Shown piece after piece: positions 46,480 through 64,000 of a stretch of 64,000 nt of DNA (the first letter of the stretch is position 1; the number at the start of each line of letters is the position of its first letter). The notes under the pieces were generated by a model. The model was not told the origin of the DNA, searched no databases, and was given only the letters and a program-made list of their open reading frames with translations. The position numbers and the translations under genes were made by a program. The stretch comes from Escherichia coli (lineage in GTDB: Bacteria > Pseudomonadota > Gammaproteobacteria > Enterobacterales > Enterobacteriaceae). Location: the NCBI RefSeq assembly GCF_009931435.1, contig NZ_CP043414.1; one strand, 5' to 3'.

Positions 46480-48471
46480 TTACTCAAGCAAGGTTAATAA
46501 TTGTTCGCAAAGCAAAACGCAGTTATTCATTGCTTCTCCCCGTGCCTCGCCTTCTGTATTACGAAATTGTCCCAACACATGTGCCAGCCGATAAAAACCC
46601 ATCGCGGTGAGTTCATTGACCAGCAACTCTGACTGACTAATGGCACTCTGTTCCTGATAGCGCCAGCCATTATGGAGCAGTTGAATAAGCAACGCCTGAC
46701 AGCGCATCAGTAACTGATGAGTGGTAGACGGTACAGGCAGAACGCTGGCAGAAGGTAGCGGTGTCACAGGCGCAGTTTCTGCGTCCAGTGCCCAGGCGCG
46801 GGTTTGCGTCATCATTACTCGTGGTTCCAGTGTCAATTGCCCCTCAGCAAAATTGATAAACCCAGAAACCAGACTAACGGGATCTTCTGTTTGTTGTAAT
46901 AGAGCTGCCATGCGTTCAACAGCAAAGGGCGCACTGGCTGAAGCTGGCAGTGATAACGTCAGCACATTATCTTCACCTTCGCCACTGATTACCTGCGCAT
47001 CCAGTGTCTGCCGACTGCTGTCCCAACCGAGTGAAATGCACTCTTCTACTGGCAGAATAAATAAGTTATCGACCTGGTTAAGCGGTCGTATGGCGGCTGG
47101 CGGACGTTGGCGTAAATATTCCCGCAAAGCCACAATGCCCGGCTGGCGCAGTGGTGCGCTCAACATTTGCCAGGCATCAGGCGACAGCGGAACAACACTG
47201 CTTAAGCGGTTGCGGGTAGCTAATAGCAACTCGCCATCGGCACTGCGTTTTGCTGCTTGTGAAACAATTTGCCCACCCGCCAGCGCGCCAGCCTGAAAAC
47301 TAAACAGCCGCCGTTTTGCCGCTGGAGAGTTATCCTGTTCACTTCTCGGCCAACTGCGCGAAAGATGCAAAATACTGCCGGTGTCGGGATCGGTGAACCA
47401 GATGCGTAAACCATACCGCTCATTATCCTGCCAGCAACGCATACCTAGTGACACCAGCCGCAAATGATCAAGCTTTGCTTCGCCAGCAATGCCTGCGCCA
47501 ACGACCGTGCGCCACGGTATGGGCGGTACTTCACCGACACTGTCACGTCGCGCTATCTCTTGTGCACTGTTCAAGCGACTGGTTAACGCCGCAAGCTGGC
47601 ACAAGCATTTTCCGGCATGATAGTGGCTGGCGCGGGCGTGGAAGGCATCAACGCTTGCCCGTAGCTGTCGTAGTGATTCACTTACCCAACGCCAGTTGCA
47701 GCGTTCCGCCGCTTGCTGCGCGCGGCTGAAAGCAGCCTCGTAATGAATAAGCGGCTGGCTGATCCCGCCCAGCCATAATGCCTGACTTAATTGCTGAACA
47801 TAGTGACGACATGCTTTACCTTCGTCGCTGGAAAACGGATCGTCAGATGATGTGACGTGTTCACTGTGCATCTGCCAGATCAAATGAGTAAATTCTGCTT
47901 GTTGATTTTTGGCCTCGACGAAGGCCTGCACAGCCAGTACTACGTGTTCACACAGCGTTCCTTCAATACAGTCACAACGGGCGAAACGAATGCTGCTGCG
48001 GGAATAAAAACGCACATCGCTCATCGGTAAGCGGGCAGAGGGAATTTCGCCCGGGGTGCAGAACAACTCAATGGTGATGCCTTTAGCGACCAGCGCCTGC
48101 GCGCGTTTGCGCGTGGTATTGGGCAGGGTAGCCAGTTCTTCCTGCCAGATTGCCGGATCCCACTCTTCTTCTTTTTCCGTAGGCTGGGCGGTGGCACAAA
48201 GTCGTTGATAACTTAACACCAGCATCACGCGATGACGGCACATGCCGCTGGCCCCGCAGCTGCATTGAGCCTCTTTCAGTGCCTGACTGTTCGCCAGCCG
48301 GGTACGGACACCGTCACTGAACGTGGCGATTAAAGCGCCGTTCTCATGGCAGATTTCCGGGACATTGCCATTTTCCAGTTCCTTAAGGCTGCGCTTCACA
48401 AAACCAGCATTGCTTAACGCCGTCAGGGCCTGCGGTGTCAGTTCTAATAATTCCGGACGTAGTGAATTCAT
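46480..48471 (-). CDS. yehQ: YehQ: protein with two SWIM-type zinc fingers (CxC-x5-C-x-H)
   Basis: Motifs CSCGASGMCRH and CDCIEGTLCEH seen in the translation; ATG overlaps the yehP stop. Confidence 0.8.
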   Translation of the reverse strand: MNSLRPELLELTPQALTALSNAGFVKRSLKELENGNVPEICHENGALIATFSDGVRTRLANSQALKEAQCSCGASGMCRHRVMLVLSYQRLCATAQPTEKEEEWDPAIWQEELATLPNTTRKRAQALVAKGITIELFCTPGEIPSARLPMSDVRFYSRSSIRFARCDCIEGTLCEHVVLAVQAFVEAKNQQAEFTHLIWQMHSEHVTSSDDPFSSDEGKACRHYVQQLSQALWLGGISQPLIHYEAAFSRAQQAAERCNWRWVSESLRQLRASVDAFHARASHYHAGKCLCQLAALTSRLNSAQEIARRDSVGEVPPIPWRTVVGAGIAGEAKLDHLRLVSLGMRCWQDNERYGLRIWFTDPDTGSILHLSRSWPRSEQDNSPAAKRRLFSFQAGALAGGQIVSQAAKRSADGELLLATRNRLSSVVPLSPDAWQMLSAPLRQPGIVALREYLRQRPPAAIRPLNQVDNLFILPVEECISLGWDSSRQTLDAQVISGEGEDNVLTLSLPASASAPFAVERMAALLQQTEDPVSLVSGFINFAEGQLTLEPRVMMTQTRAWALDAETAPVTPLPSASVLPVPSTTHQLLMRCQALLIQLLHNGWRYQEQSAISQSELLVNELTAMGFYRLAHVLGQFRNTEGEARGEAMNNCVLLCEQLLTLLE

Positions 48472-49604
48472 GACTGAAGATTCTCCGCAAGCCAGGTCGC
48501 CAGTTCGCCTGGCGTCATCGCGGCTATTTGTGCGCCGACATTTACCAGCGCCTGGGCTGTATCGCGGTCGTAGCAAGGTGTTGCGGTGCTATCGAGCGCT
48601 GCCAGTCCCAGCACTTTGATGCCGCTCTGGACACACTTTTTCACCTGATGCGTCAGCAATGATGATGAACCCCCTTCATAGAAATCGCTCACGAGGATAA
48701 TGACGCTTTTCGCTGGTTGTTCAATAAGTTGCCGACCATACTCCACGGCACTGGCGATATTGGTCCCGCCGCCCAGTTGTACTTTCATTAATAACTCTAC
48801 CGGATCAGCAACGTCTGCCGTGAGATCAACGACGCTGGTGTCAAAAGCGACCAGATGGGTGCGGATACCGGGTAACTGCCATAAACAGGCCGCCATCACC
48901 GCTGAGTGGATCACCGAATCGACCATTGATCCGCTTTGATCAACCAGTAACACCAGCTGCCATTGTTCGCTATGGCGTTTAATTCGGCTGTTAAAGCGGG
49001 GGGATTCGATATACAACTTGCCGTGTTGCGGGTGCCAGTGTTGCAGGTTGGCGCGCAGAGTACTTTTGAAATCGAAATTACGCGCCAGTGGAATAAATGA
49101 GCGGCGACGGCGATCGCGTACACCTGAAAAAGCCTGACGAACTTCCTTTGCCAGTCGCGCCATAATTTCTTCAACAACCTGGCGCACTATCCGGCGGGCG
49201 GCAGCCAGCACTTCGGGATTCATCAGATGTTTGGTGTGCAAAACGGCGCGTAGCAGGCTTTCAGAGGGCTGCATACGTTCCAGCACGTCGAGATTCGTCA
49301 CCACATCTTCAATGCCGTAGCGCAGTACGGCATCGCTTTCCAGCCGCTCAATCACCTGTTGCGGGAACAGCGTGTGAATACTGTTGATCCAATCAGGGGT
49401 GGTGAGATTTGAGCCACCTAATCCACCGGAGCGTTCACCACGCTGGAGCCGTTCAGGGTCGCGCCCGTACAGCCACTCCAGCGCGTGGTCTATCCGCCGG
49501 GCGTTGTCATCCAGCCCACAAAGCGTCGTTTCTGCCGCTTCGCCAAGAATTAATCGCCAGCGTTGTAGCTCACGAGTGGTCAGAAGATCGTTCAGTTCAG
49601 ACAT
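48468..49604 (-). CDS. yehP: YehP: von Willebrand factor A (vWA) domain protein
   Basis: 378-aa product from MSELNDLL; MIDAS motif DQSGSMVDS; overlaps yehM by 8 nt. Confidence 0.85.
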   Translation of the reverse strand: MSELNDLLTTRELQRWRLILGEAAETTLCGLDDNARRIDHALEWLYGRDPERLQRGERSGGLGGSNLTTPDWINSIHTLFPQQVIERLESDAVLRYGIEDVVTNLDVLERMQPSESLLRAVLHTKHLMNPEVLAAARRIVRQVVEEIMARLAKEVRQAFSGVRDRRRRSFIPLARNFDFKSTLRANLQHWHPQHGKLYIESPRFNSRIKRHSEQWQLVLLVDQSGSMVDSVIHSAVMAACLWQLPGIRTHLVAFDTSVVDLTADVADPVELLMKVQLGGGTNIASAVEYGRQLIEQPAKSVIILVSDFYEGGSSSLLTHQVKKCVQSGIKVLGLAALDSTATPCYDRDTAQALVNVGAQIAAMTPGELATWLAENLQS

Positions 49605-51876
49605 GGAAAACTCCCCAGTGTTGCAGTGATGCCAGTGCCTGCTGTTCGAGTTGTTGATGATGTGCAATGGCTTGCGGTGGGCAATGCAACGGCATTTGCA
49701 GCGCCGAAACGGGAAGCTGAGCGAGCTGGTAATGCTCAAGCACCTGATGCGCCAGCGTCCCGCGTTCTCGTGGCGGTAGCCAGGCCATCGCCGCGCGCAA
49801 ATCGGGCAGGGCGTTAATAAAATCGGCGTCACTCAGTTGATTCAAATGGCTGCTGAAACCGGCGATAAATGCAGGCTGACTGGCCAGTTGATGGCGGGCT
49901 AATGCCAGCAAACCGTGCAGCGCCTCGCCAGATTGTGCCGGGGATAATTGTGCCAGCATCGTCAGCGCCGCTTCGGCACTGGCGTTGGGATGTTCCAGAC
50001 GCATCAGCGCGCCAAGGGCCGCACCGCGATCCAGCGCTGGGGCATGAATCGCCTGACTGCGACGTTCCAGTAAGGCTACCGCCGCAGAAAGCGAAACGCC
50101 GGGTAAATTAACGCCGCTATTTAGATCGCGCAGGATATGGCAAAGCGCCTGCCAGCTATGCAGGTGAGCGTGAAACTCCTTCTCATCCGGCCTGCCGTTG
50201 GATTCACATAGCCACAGTGTGCGATCGATAGCCGCGTATAACGTCGTCTGTAATATCTGCGCGCCTTGCATACCGCTGATTTCATCGAGCTGCCACAAGG
50301 CGTAAAGCACTTCCAGCGCCTGGCCCATTTCGGCAAACTGATTTTCCTGGGCGATTAATAATGTGAGTTGTTCCAGTAATTGCTGACTGAAGGACGCCAG
50401 ACCCGCTAACGCTGCCTGGCTAAGACATGTGGTGATGCCGCTGATTCCACCCGCGTCCAGCATATCGGCTTCTAATTTATTGCGTGCGGCCTCCTGGAGT
50501 GTGGCACCAAAGCAGGCGGCTTCAATCAATGCCGCATGTTGGCTAAGTGGCTGGGTTAATGTCCAGCGTTCTTCACCGTTGCCCGCCAGCGTCAGTGTAC
50601 TTCCGTGCTGGCGCACAATGCCGGGAATCTCCAGTATTGCCAACCGATGTAGCACCTGACTTTGCGCCAGTCCATCGGGGGTAAAGCGATTTAAGGTAAG
50701 CTCCGCCGGAAGAGAGATTCCGGTACGTTCCAGTTCGCAGGTGACATCTTTTGGCAGAGGTGGCTGTGGCGTCGAGGGGGCAAGTTTACCGAATCCGTCA
50801 CCTGCTAATGTGTCTATCAACGTTACCAGTATCGGATCGGTATCGGGATGAATAACGCCGCGATAGCTCCACGGCAACGGCGCGTTCAGGGCTTCTTTGA
50901 TCAGCGAGCCTGCTATAGCATCCAGCCAGTCAGTGCGTAACGGTAGTGTATGACCGCGCAACTGTGCCAGTGCCATCGCATGCAGATGAGCGGCAGCCAT
51001 ATCCGCTGTTGAAGCAGGCAAGTGGTGCTGGCGCAAACGGGTAAGAACCGTTTTTAGTAGTTGTTCACCTGCCTGCTGCAAGCCCCACCGCCAGCACCAG
51101 TTTTGCCAGACCGGGGCAGGCATTCCTGAAAGGTATCCTGCCAGCACATCAAGGCGCTTTTCACTGTATGGCGTGAGATAGCAACCTGTAACGGCATCAT
51201 CCTGTGAGAGCAATTCTGGCTTGTTAATTTCTTGCGGGCATTCGCGCCACATTTTTGCAAGTGCCGGAGCGTGCCAGCCTCCGCAGACGACTAATACGTC
51301 GCCATTATTTTGCTGCATCGCCCATGCAATCCAGCGGGCCATAAAGGCTTCGCGCTGACGATTGAGTGCATCGCCGGAGGCGTCGCCCCGCAGTTGTGCA
51401 AAATAGTGCGCCAGTGCAGAGGGTAATATAGTTTGCTGGCTTTCATCTTCGAACAGGTGATCCCACAGAGTGTCGCTGTTATCCATACGAGTGGCACGCA
51501 GCAACAAAGCCTGGCTTTCCTCTTGCGTACCGGGTGACTCGTCCTCTTCTTCACTCTGCGCCCAGCAAGGCAAATCGATGAAGTAAGTTTGTGCCTGAAT
51601 ACGACGTGCGGCTTGTAGCGCCTGCCACTCCGGCGAAAATTCAGCAAATGGCGTCCAGGCACCACGCCCGGGGGCCGCACCGTCCTGATACTGGCAATAA
51701 CTGTAAATAGCTACCGGAAGCTGGTGGGCTAACAACAGTTCGTCTACCCGGTCATTAAAATCAGCCGGGCCTTCAATCAACACGTATCGTGGCCGCTGGC
51801 TTTCGATTAACGATTTCACCAGCCGGGCGCAGGCCGGACTATGATGCCGGATGCCGACAATTAACGGCTCGCTCAT
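49597..51876 (-). CDS. yehM: YehM: large protein of unknown function
   Basis: 759-aa product from MSEPLIVGIRHH; no recognisable catalytic motif by eye. Confidence 0.8.
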   Translation of the reverse strand: MSEPLIVGIRHHSPACARLVKSLIESQRPRYVLIEGPADFNDRVDELLLAHQLPVAIYSYCQYQDGAAPGRGAWTPFAEFSPEWQALQAARRIQAQTYFIDLPCWAQSEEEDESPGTQEESQALLLRATRMDNSDTLWDHLFEDESQQTILPSALAHYFAQLRGDASGDALNRQREAFMARWIAWAMQQNNGDVLVVCGGWHAPALAKMWRECPQEINKPELLSQDDAVTGCYLTPYSEKRLDVLAGYLSGMPAPVWQNWCWRWGLQQAGEQLLKTVLTRLRQHHLPASTADMAAAHLHAMALAQLRGHTLPLRTDWLDAIAGSLIKEALNAPLPWSYRGVIHPDTDPILVTLIDTLAGDGFGKLAPSTPQPPLPKDVTCELERTGISLPAELTLNRFTPDGLAQSQVLHRLAILEIPGIVRQHGSTLTLAGNGEERWTLTQPLSQHAALIEAACFGATLQEAARNKLEADMLDAGGISGITTCLSQAALAGLASFSQQLLEQLTLLIAQENQFAEMGQALEVLYALWQLDEISGMQGAQILQTTLYAAIDRTLWLCESNGRPDEKEFHAHLHSWQALCHILRDLNSGVNLPGVSLSAAVALLERRSQAIHAPALDRGAALGALMRLEHPNASAEAALTMLAQLSPAQSGEALHGLLALARHQLASQPAFIAGFSSHLNQLSDADFINALPDLRAAMAWLPPRERGTLAHQVLEHYQLAQLPVSALQMPLHCPPQAIAHHQQLEQQALASLQHWGVFHV

Positions 51877-51886
51877 GCATCTTTCC

Positions 51887-52975
51887 TCACGGCAGGCGGT
51901 GGCGAGCTTGATAATAAGCCTGCCAGTGAGCTTCTTTATGTGTAGCGACACGTTGTTCGAAGTAACGGCGCAGACGTGCGCGATCTTCTTCGTTATCTTT
52001 GACGATGGTTCCGGCAATACAGTCCACCAGGTCGGCTGGCTCCCCCGCGCGATTCGCTAAAAACCAGGCGCGGACGCCCACGGCGTGGGCCACGTTAACG
52101 GCTTCAGCGGTGGACATAATCGCTGTAAAGGTATCCATTGAGGTTTTCTTTTCGCCGTTGGCACGCAGATCGCGGAAGGTGCGGACCAGTAACTCCAGTA
52201 CCGCGTCAGGCACTTTATGCGGAATGCCACTATGGGCCAATAAACGCGCCGAAGCACTGGCGACCAGTTCCAGTTCCTGGGCGAAATCCATAATCGGAAA
52301 GACAGTTTCAAAATCGAATCGACGTTTTAGTGCCGCGCTCATTTCATTAACGCCGCGATCGCGGGTATTGGCAGTGGCAATAATATTAAAGCCTTCTCGC
52401 GCATAGAGCTGACTGGCTTCACCAGTGAGTTCCGGCACCGTCATAACCCTGTCAGAAAGCATACCTAACAGACAGTCTTGTACTTCCAGTGGTGTACGCG
52501 TTATCTCTTCAAAACGGACAATTTTGCCGTCGCGCATTCCCTGGTAGAGCGGGGCAGGGACCAGCGCTTCCGTTGACGGACCATGATTAATAAGCAGGGC
52601 GTAGTTCCAGCCGTACTTGATTTGATCTTCGGTGGTAGATGCGCCGCCCTGGATAGTTAACCCAGCATCGCCGCTAATAGCGGTTGCCAGTAATTCAGAC
52701 AGGAGCGATTTTGCGGTGCCTGGTTCCCCCACCAACATCAAACCGCGCCCGGTAGCAAGAGTGACTAACATGCGTTCGACAGCGGAGGGACTAATCACGA
52801 CTTTACGGCTGATATTTTGCGCGCTATCGCCAAGAATAAAAGAACGGGCCGCAGGCAAACTTAACTGCCAACCGGGCGGGCAAGGTGCGTGATCATTTTG
52901 TTTTAATTTTGCCAGTTCATCGGCGTATAACACAGCGGCAGGTGGACGCTGCAGATGATTATTCTGCGGTGACAT
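51887..52975 (-). CDS. yehL: YehL: MoxR-type AAA+ ATPase
   Basis: 362-aa product from MSPQNNHL; Walker A GEPGTAKS; first gene of the yehLMPQ operon. Confidence 0.85.
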   Translation of the reverse strand: MSPQNNHLQRPPAAVLYADELAKLKQNDHAPCPPGWQLSLPAARSFILGDSAQNISRKVVISPSAVERMLVTLATGRGLMLVGEPGTAKSLLSELLATAISGDAGLTIQGGASTTEDQIKYGWNYALLINHGPSTEALVPAPLYQGMRDGKIVRFEEITRTPLEVQDCLLGMLSDRVMTVPELTGEASQLYAREGFNIIATANTRDRGVNEMSAALKRRFDFETVFPIMDFAQELELVASASARLLAHSGIPHKVPDAVLELLVRTFRDLRANGEKKTSMDTFTAIMSTAEAVNVAHAVGVRAWFLANRAGEPADLVDCIAGTIVKDNEEDRARLRRYFEQRVATHKEAHWQAYYQARHRLP

Positions 52976-53086: not shown

Positions 53087-53169
53087 AAAAAAACCTGCTG
53101 GTGAGGCAGGTTCTTTTATTTACTACTTTCAGGCCTAACACCACGGCCTGTGCAACATCGTGTTCCAAC
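53087..53169 (-). ncRNA. orzO: Predicted antitoxin sRNA (OrzO-like), about 83 nt
   Basis: Minus-strand -10 TATAAT at 53176-53181 and -35 TTGCAA at 53199-53204; intrinsic terminator hairpin plus U7 at 53087-53111; 5' region (53151-53169) is near-complementary to the zorO 5' UTR (53317-53335). Boundaries inferred. Confidence 0.4.
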
Positions 53170-53175
53170 GAACGA

Positions 53176-53226
53176 ATTATAACCACCGCTGGACCCCGTT
53201 GCAATTAAGATAATGAGATTTATAAT
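53176..53226. promoter_or_regulatory. Back-to-back divergent sigma70 promoters sharing a palindromic -35 TTGCAA (53199-53204): rightward -10 TATAAT 53221-53226 (zorO), leftward -10 53176-53181 (orzO)
   Basis: Spacers of 16 and 17 bp seen directly; predicted zorO transcription start near 53234 gives a 174-nt leader. Confidence 0.5.
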
Positions 53227-53407
53227 CCTGACAGTTGGGAGGTTGCGCCGGATCGAACCAATTTCAAGTCCTGGCTACCGGACGGGTGGTGCTGCAGGTG
53301 GTGCCCTGATCCGGAGTGCAACATCGTGGTCCAACATACGTAAACCAGTATCGACAGGCAGTGTAAGGGTAAGGTGCTGGTGTTGCGCTCCTTAATAAGG
53401 AGAGCGG

Positions 53408-53497
53408 ATGGACACGCTGACACAAAAGTTAACCGTGCTCATTGCCGTACTGGAGTTATTAGTGGCTCTGTTACGGTTGATTGATTTGTTGAAGTAA
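53408..53497 (+). CDS. zorO: Type I toxin, 29-aa hydrophobic peptide MDTLTQKLTVLIAVLELLVALLRLIDLLK (ZorO-like, Ldr-related)
   Basis: Hand-translated small ORF with a single transmembrane helix, long structured leader and intrinsic terminator; matches my recollection of ZorO. Confidence 0.7.
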   Translation: MDTLTQKLTVLIAVLELLVALLRLIDLLK

Positions 53498-53518
53498 CGG
53501 GCAAATTGAAACGCATCT

Positions 53519-53550
53519 AAGGGGGAAAATACCGCTTCCCCCTTTAATAA
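53519..53550 (+). terminator. Intrinsic terminator of zorO (aagggggaa-aataccgc-ttccccctt + T-rich)
   Basis: 9-bp G/C-rich stem seen in sequence. Confidence 0.6.
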
Positions 53551-53683
53551 AATGATTACTGTTTTTAATAATTCATCATATAACTCATTTTTATTTATAA
53601 ATTCATCGATTTTATATTCAACGCACCATTTGACCGGGATGTAAATATTTATGGTGGGCTATTGGCAAAAAATATCTGGAAAG

Positions 53684-53779: not shown

Positions 53780-53785
53780 GAATAA

Positions 53786-54160: not shown

Positions 54161-54481
54161 CTATTTTTCTATTTGTTGGATGAATATATTTTGTAGTTCA
54201 CGATTAAAAATTGCTATTACAGTTTTAGGTGATTCACCTCGTAATTTACGCTCATCAATAAATTCATCTCTTATATAAATCAACGCATCATTTATTAGCG
54301 GGTCGACATCTTCTCGATCACGTTGATGAAATGTTGGATGTAGCCGGAATCGCTCCAACCGGTAGACGGAACCAGTAAATAATTCAGAGCGTTTATGGAC
54401 CTCAAGTCTGAAGGAAAACGGATCTTCAGGTACAGGGTCCTCATAATCGTAAATAGCGACCAGCTCTTTTTGCACGATCAT
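54161..54481 (-). CDS. yehK: Small hypothetical protein (106 aa), probably YehK
   Basis: ORF at the position expected for yehK between yehL and yehI; identity by synteny and size only. Confidence 0.55.
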   Translation of the reverse strand: MIVQKELVAIYDYEDPVPEDPFSFRLEVHKRSELFTGSVYRLERFRLHPTFHQRDREDVDPLINDALIYIRDEFIDERKLRGESPKTVIAIFNRELQNIFIQQIEK

Positions 54482-54540: not shown

Positions 54541-57500
54541 TTAATGGAAAATGACGTCGGGTGCGCTTAACGCCTCACTCAAATCAAACACATCAAGTGC
54601 GGCAAAAGTGACAGATTTATTGTCACGGTACACTCGAAGAGAACGGAAGCTCATTAGCGCTTTGCTATCAGCACTGTAGTGGTTAAAACCGGGTGAAAAC
54701 TTAAGGACCAGCCGATACTCGCCCAGGTCATAGACACATGCGTCCTCAAAACCTGACTCCCAGCCTTTGTATCGCATTCCCATAAGTTGCCCAACGGTTG
54801 CGGATTTACCTTCCCAGCGAGTCAGGCTGTTACTGGCTGACTCGTCAGGTGTGAGCAGCACTGTGCGCCGCATCAACTGGCGAAAAGGCGGCATAATTTC
54901 GTAATCGGCAAAAACCTGTGCAAATTCACTGCGCATTTCTGCTGTCATTTCTAACGGGTGGGCAATGCCAATCAGATCATCCGCAGGCAGGTCAATTGGC
55001 TCATCTTGTGCGTTGCAGAATTCCCCCTCTGCGGCCACACGAAAGGCGTTGAGTAAACGACGCGGTTCATTTGCCGGATAAACCGCCCATATTAATCGCT
55101 GAGTAACCAGGCGGGTAAAGGGATGATTAACAAACAGAGAATGAAAATCTGCCAGCGACCAGCGTCGGGTGGTGCGCAGGGCAGTTTCAAGACGTGGGAG
55201 CAGGTTTTTGCTCACCTGAGTGGCATCTTTTTTTAGCCCTTTTAGTCGGGCCAGTGCCTCGGGTGCTTTCAGTTGATCGTCATCGGCGCGCAACCGGGGA
55301 ACGCTTTTCTGGCGAACGTTTTGCTGATCAAAGATAACCGGGTTGAGGTTTTCATCGAAGCGAACGGTAAACTGCCGGGGTCCAAAATCAAATATCAACG
55401 CCTGCGGATCATCCAGGCCCAGTGTTGGGACTAATCTGTCCGCTAACTCTTCCTGGCTTAGTCCACGATTTTCTGCGACCACCTGAAGAAATTCCGCCGC
55501 GTTATCACGTAAGGGACGGGATTTCGCCCGTTGCGATATATGATGCAGCTGTATCAGCGCCATATCATTATTCATCAGGGTAAGTATGTTCAGGCCACTG
55601 ACGGCACGGGCAGATTTGCCTTCCTGTGGCCAGGCGAGGATCTGTGTTGTCAGATCCCGAGCCGTGCTTTCGTCACCAAAGAGACTTAACGCCAAAAAAG
55701 CCCAGTTGTCTTTTGCGGGGGCGCCAGCCTGTTGCCAGGCGGTGAAGAGATCCCTGGCAAAAGCGGCCAGCGTTTGTGGCTGGCAGAACGTTTTCAGTTG
55801 TTCCAGCCCACAATAAAAACGTCCGCCCTGGGTAAAGCGCAGCATTTCGCCGATAATTTCCAGAGCATCATCAGTAACAGGTTGATTATTCGTGATAATT
55901 CTCGGTCTGGACCACATTGTCGGATGCCAGAAATCAGGGGCTTTGGGAATGCGTGCCGGGTAAATGTCCATTGGACCCTGTTTAAGTAATTGCTCTAGGG
56001 AAGGCCATACATCTGTACGCTGCCAACGATTGGCTACAGTTTGTAGCAATTCGCCATGTCCTTGTTCGTAAAGTAAACGCAGGGCAAGTAATGCAGCTTC
56101 GCTATTATCGCTGGATTTGGTGTAGACAAGAGGGATAAGTGCCGTAGCCGTATGCTCCGGCCATTGTAAAATCCACTGGCGAGCCAGATTACGCTGGCCC
56201 GCAAAACGATGCCAGACGCGGGCAACGGGCAGAGCCAGTTCTGTTGCGCCAAAATGAATCAGCAGCGGAAATATCTCTTTGGGATGTCGGGCAAAGGCGG
56301 TGATTAATCCGGGCAAAGCATCGGTACCCAGGACACTTAACAGATATTCTACCCCGGTGTAATGAAAATCAGCCGCGACAATTTGTTGCCAGCACGATAC
56401 CGCCATTTCGCGCGGCATCTGCGCGATAAGGTACAGATTCCAAATCCCCCAACGCTTTTCATTACCATAGTAAAATCCGTGCTGAAAAGTTCGCCACCCT
56501 CCCATCAACGCAATGCTATCTTGTGCCAGTAATGATTTGGTGGCTTCTTCCCGGTACTGTTTAGATTTGGCCTGATGCGCGTGATAAGTATGCAAAAGTC
56601 CTATTGATGTGTATTCTTGCAGTTGCTGAGTATCAAAGGCATCCAGCTGTCCATTAAGAAGACGCTTATTAAATTCCAGGCTATGAACGTCAAAACCTAA
56701 TTCCCGCAAGAAGGTATCCGCCCCTCTGTTAGCAAGACGTTCGTCAAAAGACATGGCGCTAAAATGGTCAATTGCAGTTTGCTGTTCCGGCGTCCAGTGT
56801 TTATTCGGCGACTTGTACGCTTGCGGTACAAGCGTAAGTTCAGGTAGCGAAAAGTGAGTTATGGAAGTCTTTTTCCTGCCACGCCATGGTGGTGAAACGA
56901 GGATTTCAGGCAGACTGCTGTTATTGGTGCTATCAATAACCGGTTTTGGCGAAGCCGATAAATAACTATTCACCACTGCCCGGGCTTGAGTACTTAACGA
57001 CGGGATCACCTCTTCTGCCAGTTGTGGCTGCGATGCCATCAGCGTTTGTAACAGCGTATGCCAGTATTCATCACGTGCTTTTTGCTGTGCAGGCAGCTTT
57101 TTGTCTTCGATGATAGGATAACCAGGGCGCGCAGGGGGGGCTTTTAACGCCAGCAGTTCTGCCAGTGCGGCGAGCGTCGCATGGGGGAAGTTTTTACTGT
57201 ATTTAGCCACACGTTGCAGGCTGGGTTTGTTTTTATCAGCCACCAGTAGCAAGGTGCGGATGACTTGCGGATGGTTAATTTGTACCAGCAGACTGCCGCA
57301 ATCTTCTTTATGTGCATACATCGCGAGGCGCGGAACGGCTGCCAGTCCTTGTTCGCGCAAAAGGGCAGCGCAGGCCGCGTAGCCGAAGTGGTTTTCATGC
57401 GACATGTAGCTGGCTTCGCGATCGCTAAATATATCCTGACTCCAGTAGTGATCGAGTTTTCTGACCGCGCTGGGGTCATTAGCAACAACTTTTAACCACT

Positions 57501-58191
57501 CCTTAGAATGATAATGAGTCCGTGGGCATTCAAGGCCTATCAACTCATTGGCGATTTCTGGTTTCTCCGGGAGGATGAGTGCAATAAAAGGACGGCGAAC
57601 TTTGGGTATTCCTGGCAGTGCGGCAATGAGTTTGTCGGCGCAACGCTGCCAGCAGCTTTCCTCTGCCAGAGAGAGATGCTTACGCAGTCGGAGATCGAAT
57701 TCGTTATAGGTTTCTGAGCGATAACCATAGCCATAGCCATAGTCCTCCTTCTGATACTGCAATGTTACTACCAGAGGATCACTCTCATAACACCGTACAA
57801 TAAACTGGCGTGCAATCACCACCTCAGTCGCATATTCCAGCCCCTCTTGTTGGACGATTTCGTCGAGTAACTGTTGGCTATCATTTTGCGCGATACAGGC
57901 TAGCGCCGCCATTGTCCGGGCCGGAATTGAGGGTTTGTGCTCGCCGATCAAGTTGATGGCTTGCGTAATGGCCGACTGCCACTCCAGTGAAAAATTTTCA
58001 TAACGCCAGACAATGTTTTTTTTCTTCTCAGCAATGTGTAGCAATTTATCACCCAGTGTCTGGATGAGGCTTTCAGTGATAACAGGCACCGGTTCGCCCG
58101 GCCAATTGCGATGGCTGAGTGGTGTTTTGCCTTTTTTATATTTCAGTTCCAGTTGGGCGTTATCCGCCAGCCACGGTAATTCCTTGTCCAT
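54541..58191 (-). CDS. yehI: Large DUF4132-family protein YehI (about 1216 aa)
   Basis: Long uninterrupted ORF; C-terminal half is paralogous to the two upstream genes. Confidence 0.85.
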   Translation of the reverse strand: MDKELPWLADNAQLELKYKKGKTPLSHRNWPGEPVPVITESLIQTLGDKLLHIAEKKKNIVWRYENFSLEWQSAITQAINLIGEHKPSIPARTMAALACIAQNDSQQLLDEIVQQEGLEYATEVVIARQFIVRCYESDPLVVTLQYQKEDYGYGYGYRSETYNEFDLRLRKHLSLAEESCWQRCADKLIAALPGIPKVRRPFIALILPEKPEIANELIGLECPRTHYHSKEWLKVVANDPSAVRKLDHYWSQDIFSDREASYMSHENHFGYAACAALLREQGLAAVPRLAMYAHKEDCGSLLVQINHPQVIRTLLLVADKNKPSLQRVAKYSKNFPHATLAALAELLALKAPPARPGYPIIEDKKLPAQQKARDEYWHTLLQTLMASQPQLAEEVIPSLSTQARAVVNSYLSASPKPVIDSTNNSSLPEILVSPPWRGRKKTSITHFSLPELTLVPQAYKSPNKHWTPEQQTAIDHFSAMSFDERLANRGADTFLRELGFDVHSLEFNKRLLNGQLDAFDTQQLQEYTSIGLLHTYHAHQAKSKQYREEATKSLLAQDSIALMGGWRTFQHGFYYGNEKRWGIWNLYLIAQMPREMAVSCWQQIVAADFHYTGVEYLLSVLGTDALPGLITAFARHPKEIFPLLIHFGATELALPVARVWHRFAGQRNLARQWILQWPEHTATALIPLVYTKSSDNSEAALLALRLLYEQGHGELLQTVANRWQRTDVWPSLEQLLKQGPMDIYPARIPKAPDFWHPTMWSRPRIITNNQPVTDDALEIIGEMLRFTQGGRFYCGLEQLKTFCQPQTLAAFARDLFTAWQQAGAPAKDNWAFLALSLFGDESTARDLTTQILAWPQEGKSARAVSGLNILTLMNNDMALIQLHHISQRAKSRPLRDNAAEFLQVVAENRGLSQEELADRLVPTLGLDDPQALIFDFGPRQFTVRFDENLNPVIFDQQNVRQKSVPRLRADDDQLKAPEALARLKGLKKDATQVSKNLLPRLETALRTTRRWSLADFHSLFVNHPFTRLVTQRLIWAVYPANEPRRLLNAFRVAAEGEFCNAQDEPIDLPADDLIGIAHPLEMTAEMRSEFAQVFADYEIMPPFRQLMRRTVLLTPDESASNSLTRWEGKSATVGQLMGMRYKGWESGFEDACVYDLGEYRLVLKFSPGFNHYSADSKALMSFRSLRVYRDNKSVTFAALDVFDLSEALSAPDVIFH

Positions 58192-58200
58192 GCTCATTCC

Positions 58201-61200
58201 TTATTCAAACAGGGCTTCGATGTCGTTAATTAACTCGCTAGCGGTGATGTCATCGAGTGCGGAGAACTGCGCTTCCTGTGTTGAATCAATCCCCCAGCCA
58301 TAGCTTTCTGCTTTGCCTTCCCATAGCCACAGCTTGCTTAAGAGTTGCTCGGCACTGAGTTCGGCTGGCGACATACCAACTGCAAATCCTTCATCGATTT
58401 CCATGATTAATGACCAGCGGCCCAGAGGTTTGATCATCCAGCCGATCCAGCCACCGTCCTGCGGTTCACCACGCATCCAGCCTTTATTCGCCAGCCCCAT
58501 TACCCGACCGCTCGGGCATTTTCTGCCTGCCCAGCGGGTCAATTCGCTGGCATTGCGCTCGGTTTCTGTCAGGGCGTAACTGTTACGGTCGAGCTGGCGG
58601 AACGGCGGTAGCAGTTCGTAGTCGGCAAAAAGCTGACCAAAGGCGGCAGCATCCGTGGGTGATATTTCCAGAACGTGAGGAATGCCAACAGAGATATCGC
58701 CTTCCGGCAGGGTGAAAAGATCATCGTCAGCGGTGCTGTAGCTGTTATCTTCCGCCACACGGAAGCACGCCAGTAACTGGTTGTCTGCGCTATAAATGCC
58801 CCAAATCAGACGGCGGGTTAAGTGGCAGACCAGCGGATGCTCAACCAGAAAGAGCTGAAAGTTTTCTGGCGACCAGCGGCGGCGCAGGCACATGGCGGAT
58901 TCCAGCCTTGCCACCTGCTGGGCGGCAACGGTACGCGCATCTTTTTTCAGCAGTTTGTAGCGGTTAACTGCATCGTTCGCTTGAGTTTCATCATCGCTTT
59001 TGTTCGGTTTAGGCAAGTCTTTCAGGCGGCTGCCGGAAGCATCACGCACAAACGGTTTTAAGGTTTCATCAAAGCTGACGGTGAACTGCCGTGGCCCGAA
59101 ATCCAGCAGCAGCGAACCGTTATCATCCAGACCGAGATCCGGTGCTAACCGGTCTTCAAGCTCCGCCACCGTGAGTTCGCGGCTCTCGGCAATGTCGGCA
59201 ATTTTTTCTTTTGCCCGCTCCTGTAATGCTTTGAATTTCAGTTTCTGGGCGATGCCGTTAAGCTGCATCAGGGCGATATCACTACCGATAGCAGCGAGAA
59301 TATCCAGCCCGACGGTGGCGCGTTTATGCTGGGATTCACCAGGCCAGGCGCGAATCAAAGGCGTCAGTTTGCGGGCGGTATCATCGTTGCCGAGAACACC
59401 TAACGCAGTGAACGCCCAGCTTTCTTTCGACGGTGCGCCAGCGGTCTGCCAGGCGGTAAACAGATCCCAGGCAAATTCAGCCAGTGAGTCGGCGGTACAG
59501 GCATCTTTCACCTGCAATAATCCCGCATACAGAGCCTCTTCCTGAGGGAAGCGGAGCATTTCACCGAGGTGGAGGAGGGCGTTATCTGGCAGTGATTGGG
59601 CGTTTGCTTTTAATACCGGGCGTGTCCAGAGCGATGGCTGATAAAAGGCCGGAAGTGTCGGGATTTTAGTCGGGTGATTATCTAAGGGATCGAGCGCAAG
59701 TAGAGCGTTCACCGCATCGGTTACTTCCGGCTGGTTATAACGCTGGGCGATTTCTTGCAGTAATGACGGATAACCACTTTCAATCAACATACGTAAGGCG
59801 GCGCGGGCGTTATCCTGGGCTTCACCAGCTTTGCCGAGTGCCGCAGGCAACAGGCCGATAATGGCATGTTCCGGATATTTCAGCAGCCAAGTGCGGGCGT
59901 CTTGTCGTAGAGTTTTGAGTTTGTTAAAGGCGCGGGCGACGGCAGGAGCCAGTTCCGTTGCGGCAAAATAATTAGCAACCGCAAAACCTTCTTGAGGGTA
60001 GCGTGAAAACGAGTGTAGAAAACCACTCATACCTGCCAGTCGCAAATAAAGCATGACAGGTTTTACCGCGGTATGCGGCTCTTTGCTGAGAAACTCCCAT
60101 AGTTTAATCGCTTTTTGCATAGGTAAAAAGGGAAGTGAGTTGAGATGCCACTCCCCCTGATACGGTGCATGGTGGGCTTTAAACATTTGGATGAGTGTAG
60201 CGAAGTCCTCACGTTCCCATGCGTCAATTGCCGAGTCAGAAGCGCCGATATATTTATATGTGTCAAAATCCCAGCGGCGATACCCCAGCGAGTAAAGGAA
60301 ATCTTTAGCACCTTCACCTGGCTTATGCGATTCCCAGTCCCAATGAGTTTGAAACTCTTTTGCTTCTGTGTCGGTTATTGTGCATATGGATTTGAGTTTG
60401 AGCGGTGCTAAATCCAACACCGGAATCGTCGATTTTTTCTTTTTCGAAAGCCAGGGAGGTAAGACTAATACGGCTGGCAGTAGAGCGGCGCAGGCATGGT
60501 TTGACGGTTGTATCAGTTGTTGCTGGCATGATTTCAGCACTTCAACTGCGGCTGTCGAGAGCCAGGGAGTGACCTGTTCTGCCAGTGCCGGTTGCGAGAT
60601 AAGCATCGTCATTAGCATAATGCGCCAACTATTCTCTTCTTTTTGCGCAAGAAGTTCCGCCAGTGCTGCCAGTGCTGCGTGTGGGAACGCAGCGCAGGCT
60701 TTCGTCATTCGATCGTGACAGCGTTTAGTAAGCCCGGCTACACGTATAAGCAGTGTTAATGCGAACGGATGATTGATATGACGCAACACATCGGCGCAGT
60801 AGTCACTTGCGGCATAGGGAGCAAATCGGGGCAGGGCTGCAACACCTTGCTCCTGTAATACGGTGGCTGACAATATCGCACCACAATAGTAATCATCAAA
60901 AATGGCATATGGCTCGTGATATTTTTCTAATGAGGCAAGAATGTGCTCATCAGTCGCCACTATTTTTAGCCACTCAAGCGAGGGTAATTTTTTTTTCCCC
61001 AGTAGACGCTGGGCAATTTCATGTGCAATTTCTGGTTTTTCGGGTAATAACAAAGCAATTAATGGTTGCCGCCATTCTGGAATATGTGGAATTGCGGCAA
61101 TAAGTTTTTGTGCACATTTTTGCCAGAGAGACTCTTCCGCCAGTGATAAATGTTTCCGTAGGCGTAATTCAAAACTGGAATATTGCTGCAGGTTATCAGG

Positions 61201-61989
61201 TGCAATACCAGACGGCAGAATAATAATGGTATTATTCGCATAATCCCATTCAATATCAATCTGTTGAAGATGTATTACTACATCAGTAGCATATTCCAGG
61301 CCACCTTCCTGAACGAGCTGATCCATAACATCCTCACGCTCTTTATATCTCGTGCACTTCAGTTCAAGTGCCGTGAGTACAGCCATTACTGGTGATGGTA
61401 ACTGTGTTGTTTTCAGGCAGTCGATCTGACTGAGCGCCTGGGAGATGGCGTTTTGCCATTCTAAAGAACAGGCGCTGAAATCAAATGTGGCTGTTTTATT
61501 ATCCCGTTGCGACACGCTACAGGCTAAGCGACGTAACTGGGTCAAGTTGTCTGCTTGCTGAACAGGAACTCCGGGAAAGCGGCGATGGCTTAACGTGGTG
61601 TGTACAACTTCGGGCGGAAAAACGACAGCAATATCTTTCGCCAGCCACGGTAAAACATCATCTGTATTTTTGTCAGCCACACGGGCTTCTGCTACGCAAA
61701 AGGGTTGTTCCTGAATAATGGTGGATAAGGCCGCTACCTTGAGAGAATCCGTTACCGTTTGGGAAGGTTGCAAAGAATTATCCTTCGCTTGCCCCACATA
61801 CCCCTTCTTCACCTTCTCCGCAATCAGCCTCAGTTCCGCTTTTTCCGCCGCCGCAGCATCAGCAAAGCTTTTTACCTGGCTTTGCCCGTTGGTACTGACT
61901 TTGCCCCAACTAATATGCAGCTCGTTTCCCTGTTGCTCCACTGCCCAGAATTTATGTGATTTTTCGTCCTGATAAATATAGGTTTTCAT
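58201..61989 (-). CDS. molR: MolR-like protein: N-terminal WGR domain plus DUF4132 (1262 aa, intact)
   Basis: N-terminus MKTYIYQDEKSHKFWAVEQQGNELHISWGKV is a WGR domain; paralogous to yehI and to the downstream partial gene. Confidence 0.85.
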   Translation of the reverse strand: MKTYIYQDEKSHKFWAVEQQGNELHISWGKVSTNGQSQVKSFADAAAAEKAELRLIAEKVKKGYVGQAKDNSLQPSQTVTDSLKVAALSTIIQEQPFCVAEARVADKNTDDVLPWLAKDIAVVFPPEVVHTTLSHRRFPGVPVQQADNLTQLRRLACSVSQRDNKTATFDFSACSLEWQNAISQALSQIDCLKTTQLPSPVMAVLTALELKCTRYKEREDVMDQLVQEGGLEYATDVVIHLQQIDIEWDYANNTIIILPSGIAPDNLQQYSSFELRLRKHLSLAEESLWQKCAQKLIAAIPHIPEWRQPLIALLLPEKPEIAHEIAQRLLGKKKLPSLEWLKIVATDEHILASLEKYHEPYAIFDDYYCGAILSATVLQEQGVAALPRFAPYAASDYCADVLRHINHPFALTLLIRVAGLTKRCHDRMTKACAAFPHAALAALAELLAQKEENSWRIMLMTMLISQPALAEQVTPWLSTAAVEVLKSCQQQLIQPSNHACAALLPAVLVLPPWLSKKKKSTIPVLDLAPLKLKSICTITDTEAKEFQTHWDWESHKPGEGAKDFLYSLGYRRWDFDTYKYIGASDSAIDAWEREDFATLIQMFKAHHAPYQGEWHLNSLPFLPMQKAIKLWEFLSKEPHTAVKPVMLYLRLAGMSGFLHSFSRYPQEGFAVANYFAATELAPAVARAFNKLKTLRQDARTWLLKYPEHAIIGLLPAALGKAGEAQDNARAALRMLIESGYPSLLQEIAQRYNQPEVTDAVNALLALDPLDNHPTKIPTLPAFYQPSLWTRPVLKANAQSLPDNALLHLGEMLRFPQEEALYAGLLQVKDACTADSLAEFAWDLFTAWQTAGAPSKESWAFTALGVLGNDDTARKLTPLIRAWPGESQHKRATVGLDILAAIGSDIALMQLNGIAQKLKFKALQERAKEKIADIAESRELTVAELEDRLAPDLGLDDNGSLLLDFGPRQFTVSFDETLKPFVRDASGSRLKDLPKPNKSDDETQANDAVNRYKLLKKDARTVAAQQVARLESAMCLRRRWSPENFQLFLVEHPLVCHLTRRLIWGIYSADNQLLACFRVAEDNSYSTADDDLFTLPEGDISVGIPHVLEISPTDAAAFGQLFADYELLPPFRQLDRNSYALTETERNASELTRWAGRKCPSGRVMGLANKGWMRGEPQDGGWIGWMIKPLGRWSLIMEIDEGFAVGMSPAELSAEQLLSKLWLWEGKAESYGWGIDSTQEAQFSALDDITASELINDIEALFE

Positions 61990-62001: not shown

Positions 62002-64000
62002 TTAATTAAACAGTGATTCAATGTCGTTAATCAGCTCGCTGGCGGTGATGTCGTCGAGTACGGAGAAAGTGGGTGAGGATTGCTTACCATAGCGATCATA
62101 AGGGGCGGTGATTTTTACGCTTTCGACAGGCAGCAGGTCGCTATACCCCGTTTCGCCATAAATTAATGAAAAAGGTTCTGTTTCAAGTTCGAGAGCGCCA
62201 TAAGGGGTAGATTTGCGCATCGCATAGACGCTGCCGCTTTCTTCCAGACGTTGCCAGCCTCGGCGCTCTAGCCCGACAATACGTCCGGCCTGACAGAGCT
62301 GTCCTTGCCAGCGTGTCAGGTCGTGGGTATTCCGTTCATTATCAGCAAGACGATAACTACCACGATCGAGCTGTTGGAAGGGGGGAAGCAGTTCGTAATC
62401 AGCGTAAATTTGCCTGAATGCAGCGGCAGATTCAGGGGGGATTTCCAGCACATGCGGTATACCGATGTTTCCTGCTGGCAGCGTGAATAACTCATCCTGC
62501 ATATCGCTGTAAGTGCTGTCTTCTGCGACCCGGAAGCAGGCAATCAGCGTGTTTTCCTCAGTATATACTCCCCATAACAGCCGTCGGGTTAAGTGACGTA
62601 CCAGCGGATGCTCCACCAGAAACAGGCGGAACTGTTCTGCCGTCCAGCGTCTGCGCTGGCACATAGCCTGCTCCAGACGATCAATCTGCTGACTGGCAAT
62701 GGCGCGCACATCTTTCTTCAATTGTTTGAAGAGGTTAACGGCGTCAGTTGCCAGTGTTTTATCATCGCTCTGATTTGGTTTGGGTAAATCTTTCAGGACT
62801 TTGCCGTTTGCATCGCGCACTACAGGTTTTAAGGTTTCGTCAAAACCAACGGTGAATTGACGTGGGCCGAAATCCAGTATCAGCGAGCCACTGCTATCAA
62901 GCCCTAAATCTGAAGCCAGGCGGTCTTCCAGTTCAGCCATTGTCAGTCCGCGATTTTCGGCGACCATATTGATTTTGTCGCGGGCGTGTTCCTGCAATGC
63001 TTTGAATTTAATCTTTTGTGCAATGCCATTAAGCAGCATCAGCGCAATATCGCTACCGATACTGGCTAACACATCCAGCCCAGAAACCGCACGTTTATGC
63101 TGGGATTCACCCGGCCAGACCCGGATAAGCGGGGTTAGTTTACGCGCGGTGTCGTCATTGCCTAAAATCCCCAGCGAGGTAAATGCCCAGTTTTCTTTTG
63201 CGGGCGCGCCAGATTCCATCCATGCCGTGTAGAGATCCCAGCCAAAGTCAGCCAGTGATTCCCGGGTGAAGATTTCTCTAATGATATCCAGTCCAGCGTA
63301 GGCGGTAATGTCGCGAGGGAAGCTCAACATAGTGCCCAGGTGGCGCATAGCGTCATCGGACAGAGGCAGATTGTTACTTTTAAGCCGTGGTCTGCGCCAT
63401 AAGGTGAACTGATAAAAGCCGGGCAGTGGGGCGATTTTTGCGGGATATTCTTCCAGCGGATCGCTATCGAACAATGTTGCCAGCGCAGCTAAAACATCTG
63501 GTTGATTATATCCTTGGGCAATTTCCTCAATCGTTTCTCGCTGGTTTAAATTCACCAGCAGGCGAAGCGCCTGGCGGGCACAATCACGATCTTTTCCTTG
63601 TTTGCCCAGTGCCACAGGAAGTAGCCCGGCGGTGGCATGGCGTGGGTAATCAGTTAGCCAGTTTCGCGTATCTTCATAAGACATTTTTTTCTGTAATTGT
63701 TGCGCCATCGGTAAGGCCAGGTCACTGACACCGAGGAAAAAGGGGAAGAAGCACAGACGTCGTGGATCACGTTGCAGGCAGGTCATAAATGAAGGTATGG
63801 CGGCGCTACCAAAAATTGCCAGAATATTTCCCTCATCAGAGTAGTTATCTTCTTTGACTATCTGGTTAAGAAAAGAAATGGCCTGTTGACCAGGCAGGTA
63901 ACAGAGGGCAATGAGATTCCAGCTTTTGTATGCATTGTTATGGTATTGCACAAATTCAGCATTGAGTGCTGGAAAATCGAAGCGTAGCAGGGCATCAACG
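62002..64000 (-). CDS. Third DUF4132/MolR-family paralog, 5'-truncated by the window edge
   Basis: Frame stays open to position 64000 (the track start is an internal GTG); C-terminal about 450 aa are about 70% identical by eye to the molR-like gene. Confidence 0.8.
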   Translation of the reverse strand, partial: VDALLRFDFPALNAEFVQYHNNAYKSWNLIALCYLPGQQAISFLNQIVKEDNYSDEGNILAIFGSAAIPSFMTCLQRDPRRLCFFPFFLGVSDLALPMAQQLQKKMSYEDTRNWLTDYPRHATAGLLPVALGKQGKDRDCARQALRLLVNLNQRETIEEIAQGYNQPDVLAALATLFDSDPLEEYPAKIAPLPGFYQFTLWRRPRLKSNNLPLSDDAMRHLGTMLSFPRDITAYAGLDIIREIFTRESLADFGWDLYTAWMESGAPAKENWAFTSLGILGNDDTARKLTPLIRVWPGESQHKRAVSGLDVLASIGSDIALMLLNGIAQKIKFKALQEHARDKINMVAENRGLTMAELEDRLASDLGLDSSGSLILDFGPRQFTVGFDETLKPVVRDANGKVLKDLPKPNQSDDKTLATDAVNLFKQLKKDVRAIASQQIDRLEQAMCQRRRWTAEQFRLFLVEHPLVRHLTRRLLWGVYTEENTLIACFRVAEDSTYSDMQDELFTLPAGNIGIPHVLEIPPESAAAFRQIYADYELLPPFQQLDRGSYRLADNERNTHDLTRWQGQLCQAGRIVGLERRGWQRLEESGSVYAMRKSTPYGALELETEPFSLIYGETGYSDLLPVESVKITAPYDRYGKQSSPTFSVLDDITASELINDIESLFN

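Follow-up and report, generated by a model that had tools for sequence, protein, structure and literature searches.

Two groups of described systems combine a MoxR-class AAA+ ATPase with a VWA protein and thereby resemble the yehLMPQ operon of Escherichia coli. The first comprises the pairs RavA-ViaA, CoxD-CoxE, NorQ-NorD and CbbQ-CbbO. The second is formed by the ternary conflict systems delineated by Kaur et al., for which it was proposed that the vWA protein captures a peptide and the MoxR ATPase remodels the resulting complex, and in which a VMAP, an inactive STAND protein, an FtsH or a beta-propeller fused to the vWA serves as third component (PMC7159879). Here, we analyze yehLMPQ in a 64,000-nucleotide (nt) stretch of E. 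coli DNA (contig NZ_CP043414.1 of assembly GCF_009931435.1; hereafter the window), for which the operon had been proposed, from the letters alone, to be a candidate nucleoside triphosphate-dependent surveillance or conflict module. We are highly confident that yehLMPQ and an adjoining array of giant DUF4132 genes constitute one five-component module, in which the giants are partners and not context, and we see about an even chance that this module is a remodelling or processing machine of the DNA-damage response.

As in the MoxR/VWA pairs, an AAA_5/MoxR ATPase is translationally coupled to a VWA protein with a complete metal ion-dependent adhesion site (MIDAS), and this VWA protein, YehP, is specifically of the type found in CoxD-CoxE. 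In contrast to these pairs, the module is not accompanied by a client metalloenzyme in the flanks of 80 loci, it adds a DUF5682/TIKI-like protein, a double-SWIM protein as well as WGR-DUF4132 arrays, and it appears to lie behind DNA-damage control sites. With the systems of Kaur et al. it shares the MoxR-vWA core combined with obligatory large components, the paralogous variable partners and the abundance in actinomycetes and myxobacteria. Yet, it lacks all four of their third components as well as a C-terminal effector or effector-associated domain (EAD) on the vWA protein, and it is core and vertically inherited in Enterobacteriaceae. YehL, SWIM, WGR and DUF4132 are not mentioned in PMC7159879, and the present system is described neither there nor in a jumbo-phage paper or a paper on CRISPR clustering. 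What is already known are the genes themselves and the MoxR "YehL subfamily", one of seven subfamilies, with YehL as its type member (PMC3893208). In agreement with the original prediction, which had called the function unassigned, our searches of the open literature returned no treatment of yehLMPQ or DUF5682 and nothing on a link to LexA or PafBC beyond a bare listing of molR. Three findings appear to be new, namely that the partnership with DUF4132 proteins is obligatory, that YehM contains a TIKI-type domain and that three damage regulons converge.

A five-component module with giant DUF4132 proteins

The YehM family comprises 2253 clusters at 50% identity. A scan of one genome per species yielded 80 loci, which belong to Enterobacterales, Burkholderiales, Neisseriales, Xanthomonadales, Myxococcota and numerous genera of actinomycetes, and the six-frame open reading frames (ORFs) of these loci were searched with the proteins of the window. 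With D denoting a DUF4132 gene and L, M, P and Q the homologues of yehL, yehM, yehP and yehQ, respectively, the gene orders include DLMPQ (29 loci), DDLMPQ (19) and DDDLMPQ (11). Almost all of 83 loci, sampled from Proteobacteria, Myxococcota and Actinomycetota, carry one to four DUF4132 genes, with or without WGR, immediately upstream and in the same orientation, and most of the loci that have no D gene end at a contig edge. Junctions are tight, with median gaps of -1 nt (L-M), -4 nt (M-P), -4 nt (P-Q) and +20 nt (D-L). Every locus with the full set carries a VWA gene along with the yehL-like gene, yehP being positioned two genes 3' of yehL. When independent gene calls were searched with Pfam, the succession WGR+DUF4132, AAA_5, DUF5682, VWA_CoxE and SWIM was recovered, in that order, in Serratia, Pseudoduganella, a metagenome-assembled genome (MAG) of the Rhodanobacteraceae, E. 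coli, Streptomyces, Salinispora and Nocardia. The recurrence of both the order and the overlapping junctions across 80 species-level loci greatly exceeds what chance would produce. A survey of gene neighbourhoods across genomes, which had been suggested as a check of the conflict idea, thus revealed a recurrent D-L-M-P-Q order and no defence-gene family that recurs beside it.

In the window, the coordinates, overlaps and motifs given for a coupled four-gene operon were all confirmed, with each gene on the minus strand (Table 1). The genes yehM and yehP overlap by 8 nt, a gap of 10 nt separates yehL from yehM, and the TGA of yehP is overlapped by the ATG of yehQ (ATGA junction). The maximal ORF of yehQ encodes 698 amino acids (aa) from a TTG start (window 46480-48576), and database entries for its orthologues range from 614 aa (K-12, P33353) to 745 aa (O157:H7); given the conserved -4 nt junction, the ATG over the yehP stop, which yields 663 aa, fits best. 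The upstream array of giant paralogous genes is real as well and consists of three DUF4132 ORFs. It had, however, been taken for mere surroundings of the operon, and in this respect the view has to be revised, as the giants are conserved operon partners in almost all of the 83 loci. In Klebsiella, the D genes run directly into yehL, and only in Escherichia is the array split from yehL, namely by yehK and a zor-orz insertion. Homologues of yehK occur in Escherichia loci only (L001, L007), with a ratio of nonsynonymous to synonymous substitution rates (dN/dS) of 0.23-0.32, and it is doubtful that this gene belongs to the module.

The DUF4132 giants of Escherichia are molR, a yehH-like gene and yehI. 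With most E. coli, the DNA of the window shares 93% identity, and with a single isolate from a goat 98.6%, which places the window in a divergent lineage of Escherichia. The molR-like gene encodes 1264 aa in the strain of 98.6% identity, and its start in the stretch studied here lies past base 64000. The yehI-like giant, for which DUF4132 is seen in Pfam-annotated orthologues, and the second paralogue share 37% identity and are thus ancient paralogues, not recent duplicates. Among 33 DUF4132 proteins, the C-terminal 620 aa show a mean column identity of 56% and contain the DUF4132 domain in all cases. The N-terminal half, with a mean of 26%, opens with WGR in 25 proteins. The other eight, YehI among them, are devoid of WGR. 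Matches to GntR-family helix-turn-helix domains (E <=0.001) were found in 4 of the 33 N-terminal halves; either some members possess an additional domain for DNA binding, or the matches result from the way in which ORF starts were trimmed.

These features bear on the idea that the giants are MolR-like transcription factors, which YehLMPQ would switch via ATP-driven remodelling or cleavage, with gene regulation and not repair as the output. WGR has been referred to as the DNA-binding domain of "bacterial MolR-like TFs" (transcription factors; PMC7824862), the GntR-type matches would point in the same direction, and the conserved C-terminal half of the DUF4132 proteins could be the handle for the MoxR-VWA machine. 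In addition, the molR promoter is tightly regulated by BglJ-RcsB (PMC3950696) and by LexA (PMC6590174). However, no target regulon is known, a length of 1200-1300 aa with up to four paralogues would be unusual for transcription factors, and WGR is missing from YehI and the other members mentioned above. We rate this idea as improbable, and it overlaps with a role in the DNA-damage response rather than excluding it.

A few loci depart from the common arrangement. In Chitinibacter (L029) and an Azoarcus MAG (L030), the homologues of yehM and yehP are spaced by ~1.2 kb, possibly owing to an insertion. Lentzea (e.g. L052, 15342-17678) and Glycomyces (e.g. L046, 15519-17894) harbor a conserved ORF of ~780-790 aa directly after yehQ on the same strand, which has no NCBIfam match and may represent a lineage-specific extra component.

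Predicted DNA-damage control sites ahead of the module

Motifs of damage-responsive operators or promoters lie ahead of the module in two phyla. In E. coli, molR, the first D gene, has been listed as a LexA-regulated gene with a known SOS box (PMC6590174). The sequence aaCTGgataaaattaCAGgg directly precedes the ATG of the molR-like gene in the 98.6%-identical strain, at a position outside of the window. Escherichia, Klebsiella (CTGGATAAAAACACAG) and Intestinirhabdus (CTGGATGTATGCACAG) all have a CTG-N10-CAG box at a distance of ~24 nt from the ATG, and the remainder of the spacer diverges among the three genera. No convincing LexA-type box was seen in Serratia, Erwinia, Variovorax, Burkholderia or Xanthomonadales, and a possible site is present in Undibacterium. 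The window as a whole contains 33 CTG-N10-CAG matches vs 13.8 in shuffled sequences, none of them an AT-rich intergenic one near yehL; this excess is probably a codon-usage effect of CTG and CAG.

In actinobacteria, the damage activator is PafBC, whose 22-nt motif has been given as tGTCgg(N10)tA(N3)T (PMC8635444) and also as tTGTCRgtg-8nt-TAnnnT (PMC5656591). Twenty-two actinobacterial loci with upstream sequence were available, and the expectation was derived from the background rate in the same 1.55 Mb. Ten of these 22 loci (0.07 expected) contain the exact motif within the 200 nt that precede the first gene of the module, and 13 (0.14 expected) contain a relaxed version. The matches come from at least seven genera, between which the spacers differ. 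In a prospective test with genera picked beforehand (Streptomyces, Salinispora and Nocardia), all three loci were positive, the sole strict match in each 21-kb locus being located 46-148 nt upstream of a D gene. Cheo-type LexA boxes (GAAC-N4-GTTC) were also considered for the actinobacterial loci and rejected, the few matches being located inside upstream coding sequence. From the literature, MSMEG_5511 of M. smegmatis is a PafBC-dependent vWA protein that might conceivably be orthologous to YehP.

A third damage regulator comes into play in Deinococcus radiodurans, in which DRA0166 (DUF4132) and DR2173 (WGR) are mitomycin C-induced targets of DdrO/IrrE (PMC8533742). In addition, three Xanthomonadales loci (L005/L021, at about 72-752; L024; L032) carry the uracil-DNA glycosylase gene ung in the orientation of the module, its end being ~50 nt away from the first DUF4132 gene downstream. 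As judged from the motifs and the published regulons, LexA, PafBC and DdrO, three unrelated damage regulators, appear to converge on components of the module across phyla.

Several points weigh against a role in the DNA-damage response. All motif evidence is in silico, and Deinococcus DRA0166 and DR2173 may be unlinked to L-M-P-Q homologues. The sequences ahead of the module in Serratia, Burkholderiales and Myxococcota yielded no recognisable site of a damage regulator. In the window, there is no LexA-like box before yehL, ~1.1 kb with yehK, the zor-orz pair and a terminator separate yehL from the D array, and the orzO terminator is located 110 nt upstream of yehL; the missing box and the separation leave SOS control of yehLMPQ in Escherichia unproven. 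The module comprises no nuclease, ligase, helicase or polymerase, and prophage-related as well as conflict genes are typically inducible by damage, too. No experiment in the open literature connects yehLMPQ to DNA repair. Finally, the ST131 sublineage L1a carries the blaCTX-M-15 transposon TnMB1860 in the DUF4132 region (metG/yeh) of 184 clinical isolates (PMC9334617), which implies that at least part of the D array is dispensable in nature; the molR gene of K-12 has likewise been described as disrupted (PMC3950696).

Protein components and a possible mechanism

YehL had been assigned as a MoxR-type ATPase, which agrees with its AAA_5 match in Pfam (E 2.6e-34), the match to bpMoxR being marginal only (E 0.0021). 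It contains Walker A (K89 in GEPGTAKS), Walker B (E156/E157 in VRFEEITR), sensor-1 (N203 in IATANTRD) and Arg finger residues (R218/R219 in AALKRRF), and these four motifs are at least 95% conserved among 79 homologues. The proposed vWA protein with an intact MIDAS motif (DQSGSMVDS) likewise bears out: VWA_CoxE (E 1.1e-71) spans aa 151-372 of the 378 aa of YehP, and the MIDAS residues D222, S224, S226, T281 and D307 are at least 95% conserved among 77 homologues. No C-terminal effector domain is present in YehP, the homologues of which range from 370 to 387 aa. In NCBIfam, sub-threshold matches connect YehL to GvpN, MadB and McrB and YehP to cobaltochelatase; YehM and YehQ gave no match.

Based on such relatives, the module could be a housekeeping maturation chaperone that inserts metals or cofactors or activates an enzyme, as do CoxD/CoxE, NorQ/NorD and CbbQ/CbbO. 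The membership of YehP in the VWA_CoxE family and the weak GvpN/CGN-type matches of YehL would fit this option, as would the core status, the vertical inheritance and the strong constraint of the genes. Moreover, the characterised MoxR proteins are maturation chaperones (PMC3893208, PMC7159879), and the historical name of MolR, "molybdate metabolism regulator", hints at molybdenum handling (PMC3950696). Yet, genes for metalloenzymes or for the biosynthesis of cofactors are not recurrent neighbours of the module in any clade, the WGR and SWIM domains of the conserved partners point to nucleic acids, and control by LexA, PafBC and DdrO is not what would be expected of a metabolic maturation factor. 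In Deinococcus, the molybdenum-cofactor genes did not respond together with the DUF4132 and WGR genes (PMC8533742). A chaperone of this kind seems quite unlikely to us.

The length originally given for YehM stands, whereas the statement that this protein has no recognisable catalytic motif does not. YehM belongs to DUF5682 (E 4.5e-97) and consists of an N-terminal domain of ~250 aa, followed by an alpha/beta region and, at the C-terminus, an alpha-solenoid. For the N-terminal domain, an alpha/beta fold of the TraB/ChaN/erythromycin-esterase type (TIKI superfamily) is predicted; the Pfam search of YehM gave no match to any TIKI/TraB/ChaN/EreA superfamily member. GIRH11, E35, R163/R175 and GGWH202 are invariant in 81 sequences and seem to reproduce the two GxxH motifs, the Glu and the Arg of the superfamily, with a putative equivalence of the catalytic positions. 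Unlike other members of the TIKI/TraB/PrgY/ChaN/erythromycin-esterase/RRSP superfamily, the YehM domain is fused to a helical scaffold of ~500 aa and encoded inside a MoxR-VWA operon. YehM may therefore be regarded as a candidate hydrolase, possibly a protease, and a ChaN-like ligand binding without catalysis is possible as well.

Two SWIM zinc fingers had also been noticed in YehQ, and Pfam supports them with two weak matches at aa 60-88 (E 0.0036) and aa 160-183 (E 0.21), which contain the sequences CSCGASGMCRH and CDCIEGTLCEH, respectively. Among 44 homologues, the first finger (C70-x-C72-x5-C78-R79-H80) is invariant and the second is merely a majority consensus. The structural model of YehQ (predicted local distance difference test score, pLDDT, of 91.8) continues after the SWIM fingers with helical bundles and then a beta-rich domain; it has no informative structural relative, and the beta-rich domain has no solved one. 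Sequence profile searches of the PDB with YehM, YehQ and the C-terminal half of DUF4132 returned chance matches only (E >0.07). Fusions of YehM and YehP exist in four distinct clusters (P0169, P0228, P0267, P0204) of metagenomic and genomic origin, and in one case (P0232) DUF5682 is joined to part of the SWIM protein. The YehM-YehP fusions suggest physical contact, and such proteins either document a physical association or are artefacts of sequencing-error frameshifts at the overlapping junctions.

For a machine of the DNA-damage response, the following course of events is conceivable, the biochemical details of which we put forward only tentatively. WGR is a nucleic-acid-binding domain known from PARP. 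By means of WGR and their variable N-terminal halves, the DUF4132 proteins would engage a damaged nucleic-acid or nucleoprotein target, and their conserved C-terminal half would dock onto the YehLMPQ complex. The MIDAS site of YehP may then grip an acidic residue of the bound partner, upon which the YehL hexamer would spend ATP to remodel or extract this partner, as in other MoxR-VWA pairs. YehM could combine the functions of an alpha-solenoid scaffold and of a TIKI/TraB/erythromycin-esterase-type hydrolase, possibly a protease, that processes a component, and the SWIM zinc fingers of YehQ may bind DNA or a partner.

By analogy, eukaryotes possess a similar kit in form of the WGR break sensor of PARP, of Midasin/Rea1 with its AAA_5 ring and MIDAS, and of Cdc48/p97 acting with Wss1 or SPRTN. 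The module would be alike in concept, in that a WGR sensor is combined with an AAA+ ring with MIDAS grip and a candidate protease. It differs from the eukaryotic machines in that it has no PARP catalytic domain and no ubiquitin-like system, and the likeness is one of shared domains only. A more specific version, in which the module is a bacterial counterpart of p97/Cdc48 with SPRTN/Wss1 for proteins trapped on damaged DNA, appears rather unlikely at present. In this version, lesions in DNA or crosslinks between DNA and protein would be sensed by WGR-DUF4132 proteins, whereupon the YehL-YehP motor with its MoxR ring and MIDAS would extract the trapped protein for cleavage by the TIKI-type domain of YehM.

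Conservation, the defence question and adjoining loci

The operon is present in 5394 of 5426 complete E. coli genomes and occupies the same position between metG and btsSR in Escherichia, Klebsiella and Intestinirhabdus. Relative to E. coli and E. whittamii, the gene-wide dN/dS amounts to 0.04 for yehL and yehP and ~0.10 for yehM and yehQ, and the D proteins show values of 0.07-0.14 in their C-terminal and 0.19-0.24 in their N-terminal halves. Diversifying selection was rejected on these grounds, the gene-wide dN/dS being <=0.24 in all five components. The module is under purifying selection, core and vertically inherited in Enterobacteriaceae.

None of the four yehLMPQ proteins matched PADLOC-DB v2 at E <=0.01. 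No flanking gene family recurs across phyla in the 80 loci, the synteny being restricted to the genus level. Most identifiable neighbours serve housekeeping or metabolism (e.g. rpoD, ung, priA, metH and nonribosomal peptide synthetase (NRPS) genes), the one exception being a partial GmrSD_C/HNH gene ~9 kb downstream at the edge of a Nocardia locus (L090). The primary sigma factor gene rpoD follows the module in five proteobacterial loci (L021, L024, L028, L031, L032).

Relatives of YehM were detected in one of 50,697 phage records, an unverified contig, and in 43 of 72,556 plasmid records, which are mostly non-mobilisable and for the most part represent megaplasmids, chromids or mislabelled chromosomes. 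The phage record (L087, MT835988.1) is a 14-kb contig from human faeces labelled "UNVERIFIED Bacteriophage sp." (45% guanine and cytosine) and encodes divergent yehL-yehM-yehP homologues at 9332-14042, with a YehM identity of 25%, and a 1216-aa ORF downstream. No yehQ or DUF4132 homologue was detected on this contig, which is either a misbinned bacterial sequence or a divergent form of the module.

These data bear on the conflict reading, according to which the DUF4132 proteins would be diversified sensors of phage or plasmid invaders and YehLMPQ an NTP-dependent switch for the release of an effector, with the hydrolase YehM as a candidate for the latter. Consistent with this reading, the D copy number varies from one to four, the N-terminal halves are far less conserved than the C-terminal ones (26% vs 56% column identity) and their dN/dS is about twofold higher. 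The logic resembles that of the MoxR-vWA ternary systems (PMC7159879), with which the family also shares its abundance in actinomycetes and myxobacteria, and hns/stpA mutants show an up-regulation of yehL and yehM (PMC3686432). In Escherichia, the operon is adjoined by a type I toxin-antitoxin pair, and damage-inducible expression would be compatible with infection sensing. On the other hand, the operon is core in E. coli, syntenic across genera and under purifying selection without any fast-evolving gene. PADLOC matches are missing for all four yehLMPQ proteins, and no defence-gene family recurs beside the module in 83 loci. Phages hardly ever carry the module and mobilisable plasmids rarely do, it has no VMAP, inactive STAND, FtsH or beta-propeller component, and its vWA protein carries no effector domain. 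The assignment as a conflict module is thus not supported and we consider it unlikely; the defence-island-like context invoked along with it is not supported either, the giants being part of the system itself.

The duplicated toxin-antitoxin locus reported beside the operon is real. It is a zorO-orzO/zorP-orzP type I locus (window 53087-54107) with a repeat unit of ~610 bp, in which each OrzO/P antitoxin RNA is accompanied by a divergent ORF for a small hydrophobic toxin, the two toxin ORFs being identical. The zor-orz pair, which is not part of the module, represents an insertion specific to Escherichia, by which yehLMPQ and the DUF4132 array are set apart. Elsewhere in the window, two further Rfam matches reached the gathering score, namely a Peptidase-S11 cis-regulatory RNA at 32398-32478 on the plus strand (72.8 bits) and naRNA4/CssrE at 33421-33498 on the plus strand (76.9 bits).

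Table 1. Features of the yehLMPQ region, with coordinates in the window.
Feature	Coordinates	Strand	Description
yehQ	46480..48471	-	ORF, 663 aa; two N-terminal SWIM zinc fingers
yehP	48468..49604	-	ORF, 378 aa; CoxE-type VWA protein
yehM	49597..51876	-	ORF, 759 aa; DUF5682 protein
yehL	51887..52975	-	ORF, 362 aa; MoxR-class AAA+ ATPase, YehL subfamily
OrzO-P antitoxin RNAs	53087-53162, 53699-53772	-	Rfam RF02083; 98.9 and 87.3 bits
ZorO-like toxin ORFs	53408-53497, 54018-54107	+	29 aa each, identical; MDTLTQKLTVLIAVLELLVALLRLIDLLK
yehK	54161..54481	-	ORF, 106 aa; between DUF4132 array and yehL
yehI-like DUF4132 giant	54541..58197	-	ORF, 1218 aa; without WGR
WGR-DUF4132 second paralogue	58201..61989	-	1262 aa; WGR E 4.7e-15, DUF4132 E 2.2e-51
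Third DUF4132 paralogue (molR-like)	62002..64000, open at window end	-	uninterrupted translation

Taken together, yehLMPQ, molR and yehI are core E. coli genes without a function, and molR has been part of the LexA regulon list for ~25 years without explanation. The delineation of a five-component module, with a candidate hydrolase and seemingly converging damage regulators, turns a vague MoxR-VWA operon into a concrete and cheaply testable hypothesis, and it guards against filing a core module under defence merely for its MoxR-VWA pair and an adjoining toxin-antitoxin locus. If the segregase-protease version were true, the module would constitute a new, phylum-spanning pathway of DNA-damage tolerance and would provide a function for the orphan SOS gene molR.

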